DNA from: Paraspadella gotoi
Lineage: Eukaryota > Animalia > Chaetognatha
Assembly (NCBI GenBank): GCA_051294375.1
Contig: CM119263.1
Location: 26,328,758 to 26,392,757 of the forward strand
DNA: 64,000 nucleotides
Direction: 5' to 3'
In this document: one piece after another, positions 13,656 to 50,000 of the stretch
Position numbering within the stretch: position 1 is the first letter of the stretch
How the letters are laid out: each line of letters begins with the position of its first letter
Translations under genes and position numbers: made by a program
Notes under the pieces: model-generated
What the model was told of the DNA's origin: nothing
Seen by the model: only the letters and a program-made list of their open reading frames with translations
Database searches by the model: none

Positions 13656-14390
13656 TAATTACTGTCTCTTCATTCGTAATAAAAGGTATGAAAATTATGG
13701 GTAATCAACATAAACGCATAGCAATAATCCGAATTAGATTTTAACTCTGAATAAACCCGATTTTTCCGAAAGGATAAAAATCGTCTTCAAATGAATTCAT
13801 ATTTTAAACTTGGCAAGCATGGGGGTACGATTAAGACAATTTCAGGATATTTGTATCGGCGGTGGCGAGCGTCGCCGTAGGGGGAGACGGCTCAACGTCC
13901 GACGATTGGGAATGAAAATATCTTAGTTCAAGTTTCCCAAATTCGAGATCGGGAGTCGCGACGACGGATAATAATAATTGAAGAAGAAGGAAAAAGGGTT
14001 GGCTGAGGCTATCTAGGTTATTTTAGATAACGTTTGATTTGGAATTGTGTAAATTCTTCAGTTGCCTCAAAGATTACGACGTCGAAACGGTTTTAAGACC
14101 GTTTATTTACCTTTTAACCGAAATTTTATCGTTAATTTGGATTGTTTACAAACAATTTGGAAATATTTTATGTCATCGCCTGTTTTTAACTTCGATAAAT
14201 TAACAACTTTTGAAACCTCGATCGTCTGAAAGCAGAGGCAGCACAAACAATATTATTTCCAAATCCGTACTTGTCAATGTAATGTAACGGAACTGCTACT
14301 CAGTACTCACGCACCTGCGTTTTGTAACCTTTACCTCTCGTTTCTATGAAGAAAACCGTATTTTCATATAACTTTTGTTAAGTAATTATT

Positions 14391-14591
14391 GTGATTTAAC
14401 TTTCTTTCGTTGTGTTTTTAGATATTTGAAATTAAAGACAAAGTCTTGATACAGCAACGGTTTTATTTTTATTGTACAGACAAGTTTCGGCTTTCATTCA
14501 AGCCTGATGAAGGCTTGAATGAAAGCCGAAACTTGTCTGTACAATAAAAATAAAATCGTTGCTGTATCAAGACTTTGTCTTTAATTTCAAA
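14391..14591 (+). mobile_element. Hammerhead-bearing Penelope-like/retrozyme-type palindromic insertion, copy A
   Basis: 83-bp inverted arms (14423-14505 / 14511-14593, one mismatch), 12-bp direct repeat TAAGTAATTATT at 14379-14390 and 14592-14603, and ~32-34 bp unpaired tail on the left. Confidence 0.8.
14504..14537 (+). ncRNA. Minimal hammerhead ribozyme core (copy A; stem I 5' strand lost at the inversion point)
   Basis: CTGATGA 14504-14510, stem II GGCTT/AAGCC, GAAA 14528-14531, CTT, cleavage triplet GTC 14535-14537. Confidence 0.7.
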
Positions 14592-15522
14592 TAAGTAATT
14601 ATTTTATTTCTTTTCGTTTATTACAATTTTTTTTCACTCCTCACTCTTTTTTTTCATCCTGAAAACGAAAAGGAGGAACTGAGGTAATGAAAAATGAAAA
14701 AAGAAAATTACGTGGAATTCCAATTTTATACACGCATTCTCTCTCTCTCTCTCTCCTCAAACGTGACCAAATGTCTCGTTAGGATGGTCGGGCCAGTTTC
14801 TCAAAGCCAAACCGGCTTTTATAGGAAAAGCGAGAGCACGGGAACGAATTTAGGAGAAATTAGATTAAGCGAAAAAGTCACGTGGCTACACGCTGTTATA
14901 CGGTAACTGAGTAAAGTTTGTAAATTGTAAGGAAAATTAATTTTCATATAATGTTTTTAAAAAATGATACTAGTATCACATTGTCATTACTGTTTTCAGT
15001 TATTTTATTGCAAGACCGTTGGAGGTGTGGTTTTGAATCAGACCGCTGGCAACAATGAAGAAAAACTCAAGGAATTCAAGGCTAAAATCATTGACTATTT
15101 TATTAGGATAATATTAAACGAAGGTTACTCACTGAGGGGCAAATATGATTATTCTCATCTACTCTATCTGCAATCAAAACACAGTAAATTTTCAAAACGG
15201 CATTATAGGCAATCGTAAATATGTTCGATTTCATCTGAGATTAGCCGAGGCGATTTTAATCTTGTCCAATTCTATTTGTGTGAAAGTTTTCAGATCGTTT
15301 GAACTGATACTGTTATATGTAAGTTTTTTACTCAAGTGATGATGAGAATTCAAAGTTCTTCAGATCATGAAAATTGATAAAACGTTTCTTGTTCCAGGTA
15401 ATTACAATATTTTCTTGAACGGGTTATTTTATAATCTTTGACTTCTGAGAGCCTGAAAATCTTCGCTTTGCTTCAAACTTATTCTGGTTAGTCTTTTTGA
15501 AGATTTTTTTAAAGCTCAAGCA

Positions 15523-16137
15523 TTATATTATTTCCTTTCTTTTTCGTTGTGTTTAATTAGTTAGAGAAAACAAAGTTTGTTTGTTTGTAAACAACGATTT
15601 TATTCACATTGGACATGTTTCGGCTCTTTTTCTCTTTTTCTCTATTTTTTCTCTTCCTCTCTAACTTAGCTATCCCTAACCACATATTCTTCCTTTCCAC
15701 TATATTTCATTCTTAAAAATAGTTAAATATGTTAGTTTAATCCTTAAATTTGTTATTTAATCCTTAAATTTGTTATTATTTATTTCATTTATTTTGTTAT
15801 ACATTACAAAAAATGTAATTATTTTCTCTCCCTCTGTCTCTCTCAATATTTCACCATTCATTTTTCAACCACTTTCCTCTTCTTCTCTCCCCTTACCTTC
15901 ACCTGTCCTCAATCTGACCACTGTCCTTTTCTCACTCTGTGTTGGAAGCTTTACTTTCTCTCTCTCTCTCTCTCTCTCTCTCTCTCTCTCTCTCTCTCTC
16001 TCTCTCTCTAACTCAATGTTAAAGAAAAAATTTGTTATTGAAACAAACGCTGATGAAGGCTTAAAGGCAAGAGCCGAAACATGTCCAATGTGAATAAAAT
16101 CGTTGTTTACAAACAAACAAACTTTGTTTTCTCTATC
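15523..16137 (+). mobile_element. Hammerhead-bearing Penelope-like/retrozyme-type insertion, copy B
   Basis: ~69-bp inverted arms (15560-15628 / 16069-16137), 13-bp direct repeat TAAAGCTCAAGCA at 15510-15522 and 16138-16150, ~34-37 bp tail containing TTTCGTTGTGTTT. Internal CTGACCACTGTC and CT tract are shared with copy C. Confidence 0.85.
16050..16085 (+). ncRNA. Minimal hammerhead ribozyme core (copy B)
   Basis: CTGATGA 16050-16056, stem II GGCT/AGCC, GAAA 16076-16079, palindromic ACATGT stem III, cleavage triplet GTC 16083-16085, AATAAA shortly downstream. Stem I pairing is weak. Confidence 0.75.
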
Positions 16138-46990: not shown

Positions 46991-47016
46991 TACATGTTTC
47001 GACGAGTCTTCATCAG
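46991..47016 (-). ncRNA. Hammerhead core with shortened stem II (copy D, minus strand)
   Basis: Minus strand CTGATGA-A-GAC tc GTC-GAAA-CATGTA; 12 bp shorter in stem/loop II than the plus-strand copy. Confidence 0.6.
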
Positions 47017-47026
47017 CAAAATTTTG

Positions 47027-47064
47027 CTGATGAAGACTCGTAATACTAAGAGTCGAAACATGTA
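47027..47064 (+). ncRNA. Minimal hammerhead ribozyme core (copy D, plus strand)
   Basis: CTGATGA 47027-47033, perfect stem II GACTC/GAGTC, GAAA 47055-47058, ACATGT palindrome, GTA triplet 47062-47064, then AATAAA. Confidence 0.8.
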
Positions 47065-50000
47065 CATTAATAAAAAAAAATTGCTATTACAACGAATTTT
47101 TCGTTTCATCTCTAAAATAAAACTGAAAAATCGAAAACGTATATAATAAAAGTTTGATTTAATATTGGATTAAGAAACAAAAAATTCTTTTTAACCATAA
47201 AAGTAATAAAGTTATAACTATTTTCTCGCTTCTTTTTCTTTTTCTCCTTCAAAAACTTCGTTTTCTCTTTCTCTCTCCTTTTTCTTCCCCAGAGAGATAA
47301 GCAGTCATTAACATTTCCATTATCTCAACCTCCTTTTATTTATTTTCCTTCCTCGCGGTCAAAATGTTTTGTTTACATTAGGCGCGCGATTAGATTTTTG
47401 TTTCCTCGTTTTGTTTACGTTTTCCGGTAGAGAAAATTTGCTTTTTTTTCGCCTCGAAAAAAAAAACGTGTTTTCCTAATTTAGGTTTTCGCGATTTTGT
47501 TTATTTAGGTTTCATTCGTTAGTTTGTTCGAAGCTTGAAACTTTTTATTTTTTGATTTTCTTTTTCCTTTTTTTTTATGATAGTAAACGGGTTTTTTTTC
47601 TAAAATTTTCTTCTATGTATATAAACTTATAGTATCCTTGTCATAATTTTTGACAGATTAGGTAGTTCTTAACAAAGTATTAATAATTGTTTGTTAGTAA
47701 ATTAATTCGCTTGCGCTATTCACTTAATCCTAGTCACCGTCGGTGATTAGAATTCTTTGTTTATTTTGACTGCGTCACGATTTAAATCTTCTTCCACGTG
47801 ACCCAGATTCCCTGCGAACGGGTCGGCCCGTGATCCATTCACGAATCTAAGCGTGAATCGATTAATCTTAAATTCACAACCTCGCCGTCCTAGAAACGTG
47901 AATCATCACCGGGGGATAATTTTGATTCCTTGAAATCAATTCATTTTGATCGAAACTGTGACTCACTCCGTGATTTAAAATATTTTTATTATATGTATCA
48001 AACACAATTTTAAATCAATTATCATATTTTTGCGAAAAGTGGCCACAACTAACGATAATTTTCTCGTCATCTTATTTTTCGTTTTTATTTTTATTAATTT
48101 CGTCCCCAAAATGAGTTTTTTGGGGGGAGCGTTTGTTTTGTTTATAAATAAAACCGATAAAAAAACGAAGCGAGTTTGATTTACGCCACACAAAAAGAAA
48201 ACAAACGCTTCTCCTTAAAACAGTTTGGTGACACACCGCTTATAAGACAAAACTAAAATATTAGTGATTGATTGATTGCTTTATTGCTTGATTGATTGGT
48301 CAATCTAGGTCAATCGGAAATAAAACTGGCGGTGAGTTAAAGAGTAAGGACTTTGTTAATGAATTGAAAGTAGGTAAGGAGTATATTTGGGATATCGGGG
48401 GTTGTTGAGGTGTTGCAACACCTGGGGTTTAATCTTGGATGTGTGAATGCGGGGATTGGGGGAAAATGAGGGGGGGTTTTCTCTCCTGGAGTCGAAGAGG
48501 CAAGGATTAATCCCCCGAAGGTCGTCGTCGTCGTCGTCGTCGTCGTCGTCGGCGAACTAATCCGGTTTTGAGTTTTATCTCGGACTCTCGGACGGACCCG
48601 CCGGGACTCGGAACCTGATGAATAAAGAGTTAAGCGCATTAGGGGTTCGAACCCTGGACGAGTTCATCGCCTCCAGACCGACTCGTTTCCCTCCTCCCCC
48701 CCACATTCGGTTTCGCTTCGTCAGATAAGGAAAAAGACTTTTCCTTTCTTTTCGATATTTTTTTCCCTTTTATTCGGAATCAAGATCAGAAAGGCGCCGA
48801 CGGAAGACAACAACAACGACGACAAGCTTTGATTGCGAGATCTCGGTTTATATGCGTACACTGATGCGTACGGCGAGTTCTGGTTGATCGGTCACCCGTT
48901 TAAAATCCTTAGAAATATCGAACGGCTTCTATTTTCTTGGTCGCGTGACTCGGTTTAATGTACGTTAATTACTTACTTACTTACTTACTTTCTTTCTTTC
49001 TTTCTTTCTTTCTTTCTTTCTTTCTTTCTTTCTTTCTTTCTTTCTTTCTTTCTTTCTTTCTTTCTTTCTTTCTTTCTTTATTTCTTTCTTTCTTGCCCTT
49101 TTTATGACTTTCCATATTTTTTATTTTCGTTTCTTTTTTTTTATTCTATCCTTTTGTTTCTCCATTTTTTACCTTTTCTTATTTTCTTTATTTTTCATTC
49201 CAGCATATGTAATATGTATTCATTTATTTTCTTTCCTCTTTTTTTACGAAACCGAAGTCATTAAATAATAATTTATTATTGATTAAATACCAGGATAACA
49301 CGAGTTTTTAATTTCTTTGTTCGAACCAAACCGATTCTTCAAAGAAAAGGACTTCATTTCTCTTCTCCCTCCTCCGCCCCCTTTCCTTTCTCATTCCTCT
49401 TCCTCTTTCTCTCCCTTTCCTCCATCTCCCTTTTCTTTCCTCCATTTTCCTTTCCTCTCTTCTTCTTAATGACGAACATAAACGTCTTACGTCGTTCGAT
49501 TTTCGAATCCTTTTGACCTCAAACACAAGCGAACGCTTCCGCCACTTTGAGTTTCTCCATCAATTTTGCATCACTTCGAACATCTCTACCACTTCTACTT
49601 CACTTCGAACTTTTGCATCTCCTCGTGATTTGTCTTATTTTTTTACATCCAGATTCTTCATCACTTCGAGATTCTCCATCACTTCTTCATCACTTCTAGA
49701 TCACCATCAGATTTAAATCACTTCTCAATGATCACCACTTCTTTAAAACCACTGGTTCCTGACCAAAGCCTCCCGCTGCATCCACCATGATGGTCCTATC
49801 ATCTTTGACCCTGCAAGCACAAGTTCGCAACTGCCTATTGTAAATCAATTGTAACGAGATCGAAGCAAGTCTCTCAACCACCCGCTCTCCCTTCATTCCC
49901 AACTTCTTTTCCGATGTGGCAGCTGCCGGATACGCCCACCCTTCCGCCGTCTTGCCGCCCCTGCCGTCCCTGCCGCTCCTGCCGCTCCTGCCACTGCCCC

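Follow-up and report, generated by a model that had tools for sequence, protein, structure and literature searches.

Anatomy of the four inserts

The window analysed here is a 64,000-nt stretch of Paraspadella gotoi contig CM119263.1 (positions 26,328,758 to 26,392,757, forward strand). The only gene identified in it encodes an MRP1/ABCC-like transporter (~16455-20826, plus strand), and the window also holds four real insertions, here called A, B, C and D, each of which can be read directly from the letters as a pair of mirror-image arms carrying a hammerhead ribozyme motif. These inserts are most likely ordinary landing stubs of Penelope-type retroelements rather than a novel type of mobile element. 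The hammerhead core has the form CTGATGA-A-stem II-GAAAC-NN-GT(C/A) and starts at 14504 (A), 16050 (B) and 47027 (D) on the plus strand and at 22488 (C) on the minus strand. A strict scan for this core (CTGANGA, a stem of at least 4 bp, GAAA, and C-NN-GT-H) returned four matches in the window, against a mean of 0.005 and a maximum of 1 across 200 block shuffles; the loose form of the pattern had a shuffle mean of 0.415. A preliminary description of this DNA had proposed the same hammerhead layout for all four inserts, with target-site duplications (TSDs) of 12-13 bp around A, B and D. The layout is borne out by the scan and the TSDs by exact repeats, and the coordinates given for these three inserts proved exact.

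Insert A is bounded by an exact 12-bp TSD (14379..14390 and 14592..14603). Within it, comparison of the arms delimits a one-sided tail of 32 nt (14391..14422, minus strand), followed by an inverted arm (14423..14504, minus strand) that begins at stem II, without the CUGAUGA box, and agrees with the right arm at 81 of 82 positions outside gaps. The motif scan places a minimal type I hammerhead at 14504..14537 (plus strand), with a predicted cut after the GUC ending at 14537, and a 3' part containing AATAAA (14538..14591, plus strand) runs to the tail-less end. Insert B has a 13-bp TSD (15510..15522 and 16138..16150), a 34-nt tail (15523..15556, minus strand) and an inverted arm (15557..15628, minus strand; 71/72 identical) that begins within loop II. 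Its arms are separated by a non-coding, pyrimidine-rich, multi-copy body with a (CT)26 run (15629..16049, plus strand), which is homologous to the body of C (76% over 106 nt against 22814-22919), and its minimal hammerhead (16050..16085, plus strand) has a predicted cut after GUC at 16085. Insert D is flanked by a 12-bp TSD (46884..46895 and 47113..47124) and has a 40-nt tail (46896..46935, minus strand) that other contigs join to different flanks. The inverted arm of D (46936..47021, minus strand; 83/84 identical outside gaps) additionally carries a 12-nt deletion in its stem II, and the minimal hammerhead (47027..47064, plus strand) has a predicted cut after GUA at 47064.

Insert C is an older palindrome of ~700 bp (22368..23063, ends approximate) in which a body of ~320 nt is present in both arms. 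Its tail lies at the left end, with uncertain limits, and no recognisable TSD was found around it. Outside gaps its arms agree at 258 of 291 positions (78.8% identity by BLAST). The hammerhead previously quoted for C belongs to the minus strand and the left arm (22454..22488) and has an intact core, a 6-bp helix I and a G-U pair at the base of stem II; the plus-strand copy in the right arm (22978..23012) is decayed, with bases of the core lost (CTGATAA, AAAAC).

In A, B and D the tail is present at a single end only, one arm extending beyond the other, and since the arms end 32-40 nt short of that terminus they are not terminal inverted repeats (TIRs). At the tail-less end, the first bases of the right TSD copy are also those with which the element itself would continue, namely TA in A, TAA in B and TAAA in D, and all three TSDs start with TAA. 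With a profile made from the eight arms, neither a fifth copy nor a ninth arm turned up in the window, and a search of the window for direct, head-to-tail tandem arrangements found none, the arms occurring as head-to-head pairs only.

The hammerhead motifs and their predicted activity

The motifs resemble the minimal hammerheads described in PMC4209133, which are characterized by an extra base before stem II, a G10.1-C11.1 pair and a palindromic 15.2-16.2 region. The extra base is present, and the G10.1-C11.1 pair is found in A, B and D. The short palindromic stem III holds for B, C and D (ACAUGU) and fails for A, where the stem III loop reads ACTTGT and is non-palindromic. Taken over five arms, 96% of stem II is paired, against 12-43% in slid controls, with double changes at two of the five pairs; 11 of 500 shuffles had as many doubly changed cells as were observed. 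With five related rows, this alignment lends modest support to covariation in stem II. The double changes uphold part of the covariation noted before, and the C variant GATTT/AAGTT drops out of it as decay, because the opposite C arm reads GACTT/AAATC.

Helix I comprises 0 bp in A, where the partner strand is absent, 1 bp in B, 2 bp in D and 6 bp in the left arm of C only. The letters upstream of the core in other D-like contigs (loose ends of 30 letters) would allow a 4-bp helix I, so the motif of the family is probably complete and the copies in A, B and D cut. Because the arms lie on opposite strands, one transcript carries a single sense motif and cannot give the dimer required by minimal hammerheads, which are reported to have low activity even as dimers (PMC4209133). 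A and D each fold as one long hairpin (-133 and -111 kcal/mol, respectively). When the 3' ends were folded alone (z = -0.02 for B, -2.22 for D and 1.14 for the left arm of C), stem II formed and no full hammerhead fold was obtained. Given the missing helix I, the opposite-strand arms and the long hairpins of A and D, the inserted ribozymes of A, B and D are likely non-cleaving, which does not support the self-cleavage predicted earlier at their GUC/GUA sites. The Rfam search proposed as a check did not detect the motif: none of its 47 matches at E<=1 was a hammerhead, and there were only chance matches of hairpin type, with scores below gathering. The five lesions in the two C hammerhead copies all read G>A on the plus strand; over the whole C arms the corresponding excess is weak (12 A.C against 7 G.T), and no mutational bias is claimed.

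Copy state and mobility in the host

The region was found in nine sequencing runs of one organism, of which six were compared as contigs and not as reads; the comparison covered A, the left part of B, and D, the flanks of D being without cover in runs X6 and X8. In run X2, unique contigs had a summed depth of 141-301 in the comparison for A and B, whose own values were 45,527-100,231 (A) and 13,139-123,145 (left part of B); for D the sum was 28,112-281,476, against 168-177, and fell at the ends of D. This summed depth is not equivalent to copy number. In run X5 the B body appears as a near-identical multi-copy contig of 299 nt at depth 226, with unique contigs at 6-15. A-, B- and D-like sequence is present in many related copies genome-wide. 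The inserts are only 72-78% alike in pairwise comparison, over stretches of 53-106 nt, and so represent several divergent subfamilies and not one young family. A non-coding body of 320-420 nt, without an open reading frame (ORF), is common to B and C. In these bodies (15890-15930; 22830-22860 / 22605-22640) a shared block, CTGACCACTGTC, lies beside GTAAG on the strand opposite to the hammerhead, and this GTAAG resembles a splice donor.

D is an insertion that is absent in another run and a recently mobile feature: a contig of run X9 joins 46883 to 47113, skipping 229 nt, with 12 letters that fit both sides, such that the TSD sequence stands once at the empty site. A GT-AG intron does not account for the skip in any of 13 registers on either strand. 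No empty sites of A or B were present among the joints listed. Five further D-like contigs have five inner junctions (46917>47027, 46920>47021, 46951>47024, 46948>47070 and 46968>47068), and because all five differ, the palindrome was likely made anew at each insertion. Recent mobility, as suggested in the preliminary description, is well supported by the empty site and by the near-identical arms of A, B and D; its picture of a single mini-element family moving as a unit does not fit the other copies, which have other junctions.

The same motif in other hosts

A search for the core together with AATAAA gave no matches in viral contigs (IMG/VR) and an estimated ~850 loci in metagenome contigs, of which 100 were taken. 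Neither helix I nor a long stem II was required by this pattern, and helix I of at least 3 bp was present at 73 of the 100 loci and stem II of at least 4 bp at 80. An inverted partner accompanied the motif at 55 of the 100 loci (53 distinct), and 12 of the 53 combined a repeat of 9-13 bp with a one-sided gap of 23-41 nt, a count that has no chance control. With a looser anchor, the partner was found at 62 of 96 distinct loci. A BLAST comparison of A-D with these 100 outside loci returned nothing at E<=1e-3, and the outside loci are therefore assigned to the same motif class and not to the same families. Short head-to-head stubs are thus a common form for this motif class, their link to a reverse transcriptase (RT) being putative. 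At many outside loci (L003, L015, L019, L030 and others) a conserved ATGCACGGT motif occurs in the tail region, 90-130 nt past the core. It is possibly the start of an element ORF, by analogy with Adineta tails; in Adineta Pen2a the pseudo-long terminal repeat (pLTR) and tail encode the first 22 residues (PMC3846280).

Origin of the inserts

A-D are probably short insertion products of endonuclease-bearing (EN+) Penelope-like elements (PLEs). Insertions of this kind are described as an inverted, 5'-truncated pLTR, a tail of 30-40 bp and a TSD (PMC8557442, PMC3846280), and pairs of hammerheads on opposite strands, 100-700 bp apart, have been interpreted as probable truncated PLEs (PMC4209133). 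Inverted arms are found in all four inserts, the one-sided tail of 30-40 bp in A, B and D, and a TSD at an AT-rich site in three of the four, and the hammerhead lies inside the pLTR, in a form to which the Rfam models are blind. The PLE origin favoured from the start is well supported by this combination of inverted truncated pLTR, tail and TSD. The layout is also the published signature of PLE insertion (PMC8557442, PMC3846280, PMC11167929), which removes the unexpectedness that had been attached to it. What is gained is modest: PLE-type subfamilies with recent activity, in a host lacking a close annotated relative, and D as an insertion whose empty site occurs in another run.

A purified Anolis PLE introduces nicks in both strands of AT-rich DNA and extends from them, with two adjacent internal starts that bound the tail (PMC11167929). 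By analogy, we infer an enzyme of this type, priming at two nicks, and full-length transcripts as templates for A-D. A GIY-YIG endonuclease would nick both strands of an AT-rich site 12-13 nt apart, and each nicked 3' end would prime reverse transcription at one of two adjacent internal start sites on the RNA, the tail corresponding to the RNA stretch between them. Where the tail is lacking, the nicked DNA probably pairs with 2-4 nt of RNA (UA, UAA or UAAA). Both cDNAs would then halt early, their inner ends would be joined, and fill-in would yield the TSD; the hammerhead would be a passenger in A-D, predicted to be inactive. Short base-paired priming is suggested by the TAA with which the TSDs start and by the 2, 3 and 4 nt that they have in common with the continuation of the element. 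A preference of the endonuclease for TAA would give the same pattern with n = 3, and the start site in the in vitro study was not homologous to the target (PMC11167929).

Several points weigh against a PLE origin of the inserts or this course of events. Pfam gave no RT or GIY-YIG match in the 199 frames scanned out of 230 in the window that reach 55 amino acids, the other 31 being alternative frames inside the ABCC gene, nor in the 144 scanned out of 167 frames near the motif at the 100 outside loci. The tails of the inserts in the window contain no ATG. No two outside copies have more than 300 nt in common upstream, a finding that short templates would explain as readily as truncation. The D empty site is a single X9 contig of depth 2.2 with 47 letters on its short side, in a run whose kind was guessed. 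For head-to-head junctions, moreover, PMC3846280 prefers self-priming on an antisense template to priming at two nicks.

Some of these points bear on an alternative that we regard as a real possibility, if a rather unlikely one, in which the same PLE enzyme and head-to-head insertion act in trans on short non-autonomous RNAs (pLTR-only and SINE-like, after the short interspersed elements), such as the ~600-nt unit of B and C. The common non-coding body of B and C and its near-identical multi-copy contig would be expected of such an RNA, as would the lack of any RT-linked copy among the scanned window frames and the 100 outside loci, and pLTR sequences have been reported to be sufficient for mobilization in trans (PMC3846280). 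The lack of an ORF within 420 nt would be expected in any case, since strong 5' truncation is the usual state of PLE copies (PMC8557442), and the 5' ends of A-D differ widely, which also speaks against this alternative; the upstream limit of the B body lies beyond the reach of the short contigs.

A further idea concerns the stub ends themselves, which might record base-paired priming and carry the footprint both of hammerhead cleavage in vivo and of a fixed RNA 5' end. The 5' stops fall just before CUGAUGA in A, D and three of the five other D-like copies, and 3-5 nt past the predicted cut in the remaining two. At the outside loci, 59 inner junctions lie between -106 and +39 nt of the core and three lie 10-41 nt past the cut site; only 2 of 62 are within 5 nt of the cut site, in a set chosen for a whole core on one arm. 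A cleavage footprint is not upheld at those loci, and for the inserts we consider the idea doubtful. If true, the stubs would record steps of PLE transposition so far unseen in vivo, and if the clustering of junctions were to hold genome-wide, they would make it possible to locate PLE nick sites in vivo and to trace priming and the disputed part played by the hammerhead.

Movement of the whole unit, either as a ribozyme-driven retrozyme, with tandem repeats giving rise to circular RNA, or as a palindrome of the miniature inverted-repeat transposable element (MITE) type, is very improbable. The inserts are small, ORF-less and multi-copy, and animal retrozymes have TSDs of more than 4 bp (PMC7229834), but the head-to-head placement of the copies, their minimal motifs and a helix I of 0-2 bp (A, B and D) are at odds with a retrozyme, while arms that end 32-40 nt before one terminus and a TSD length of either 12 or 13 bp are at odds with a MITE. 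Both forms are largely refuted by the D junction, which was not found in other D-like copies. Fold-back chimeras of the assembly, finally, can be set aside with near certainty: near-perfect palindromes in a gappy assembly (2,834 N) might raise the suspicion, but the TSDs are exact, the arms have differences of their own, an empty site is present in a run of another study, and the two ends of A, those of D and the left one of B are crossed by contigs of X2 (possibly the source sample) that show no deviating letters.

Neighbouring gene and repeats

The MRP1-like gene lies ~320 bp downstream of B and ~1.9 kb downstream of A. It is nearly free of long introns, and changes of frame near 17950, 18960, 19515 and 20374 may be short introns, frameshifts or errors. 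Its best matches are animal proteins of at most 51% identity, which identifies the host as an animal without a close annotated relative. Between A and B, at 14689-15259, an X9 contig leaves out 97 nt that match a GT..AG intron (14903-14999, plus strand), indicating a spliced transcript in this interval and at least some RNA in run X9.

Three further repeats were observed. The sequence at 13448-13672, of which a fragment recurs at 59546-59614, reaches a summed depth in X2 of up to 3.7 million, against ~200-300 for unique sequence, and has sharp ends and varied flanks (88 and 210 contigs). Its middle, which by eye we take to be tRNA-like and presumably akin to tRNA-Gly, was not found by ARAGORN or Rfam; the repeat is likely a SINE. 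It was considered as a fifth hammerhead, having CTGATGA on the minus strand, but the window scan found no GAAA half, and it was rejected. Another multi-copy repeat, at 13855-14245, has an X2 depth of ~19,000-27,000 and no second copy in the window. Lastly, an inverted repeat of ~1 kb (55080-56066 and 56378-57397) has a 311-nt spacer and 958 of 966 aligned letters identical (91% with gaps). Its right arm stops at an N gap at 57407, partial copies occur at 58793-59234 and 11754-11886, and it may be a fold-back or TIR element or an effect of assembly.

Comparison with known elements

MITE and other TIR elements have inverted repeats at both termini and a TSD of fixed length (PMC8969392 and general knowledge). 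The inserts have neither, and the five junctions of the five D-like contigs show that there is no single internal structure. The animal non-LTR (long terminal repeat) retrozymes (PMC7229834) share with the inserts a small size, the lack of an ORF, an AT-rich composition, a type I hammerhead and TSDs that are long when present. Retrozymes are built of head-to-tail tandem repeats with canonical ribozymes and form circular RNAs (PMC7229834), whereas in the inserts the pairs stand head to head and have a PLE tail; head-to-tail repeats of a 150-450 bp monomer were not found in the window, and the full helix I of a canonical type I hammerhead is approached only in the decayed C, with 6 bp.

The minimal hammerheads of metazoan PLEs (PMC4209133) are closer, with the same extra base, the G-C pair in stem II, an ACAUGU helix III as in B, C and D, a weak helix I and variable copies, and the opposite-strand pairs 100-700 bp apart in Schistosoma are arranged much as the inserts are. 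The inserts differ in that helix I is cut or broken in A, B and D, the loop of A is non-palindromic and both C copies have decayed. With respect to the EN+ PLEs (Penelope/Poseidon, Neptune and Nematis, including Pen2a and Pen2 of Adineta vaga and Poseidon PAc of Anolis), the inserts have no ORF attached or found in the scanned frames and no ATG in the tail, and their TSDs of 12-13 bp compare with 8-10 bp in the Adineta examples (PMC3846280). The head-to-head, inverted, 5'-truncated pLTR is the same in both (PMC3846280, PMC8557442, PMC11167929), and with it the inserts share the tail of 30-40 bp at one end, the TSD, the AT-rich target, the hammerhead in the pLTR and the palindrome at the inner junction.

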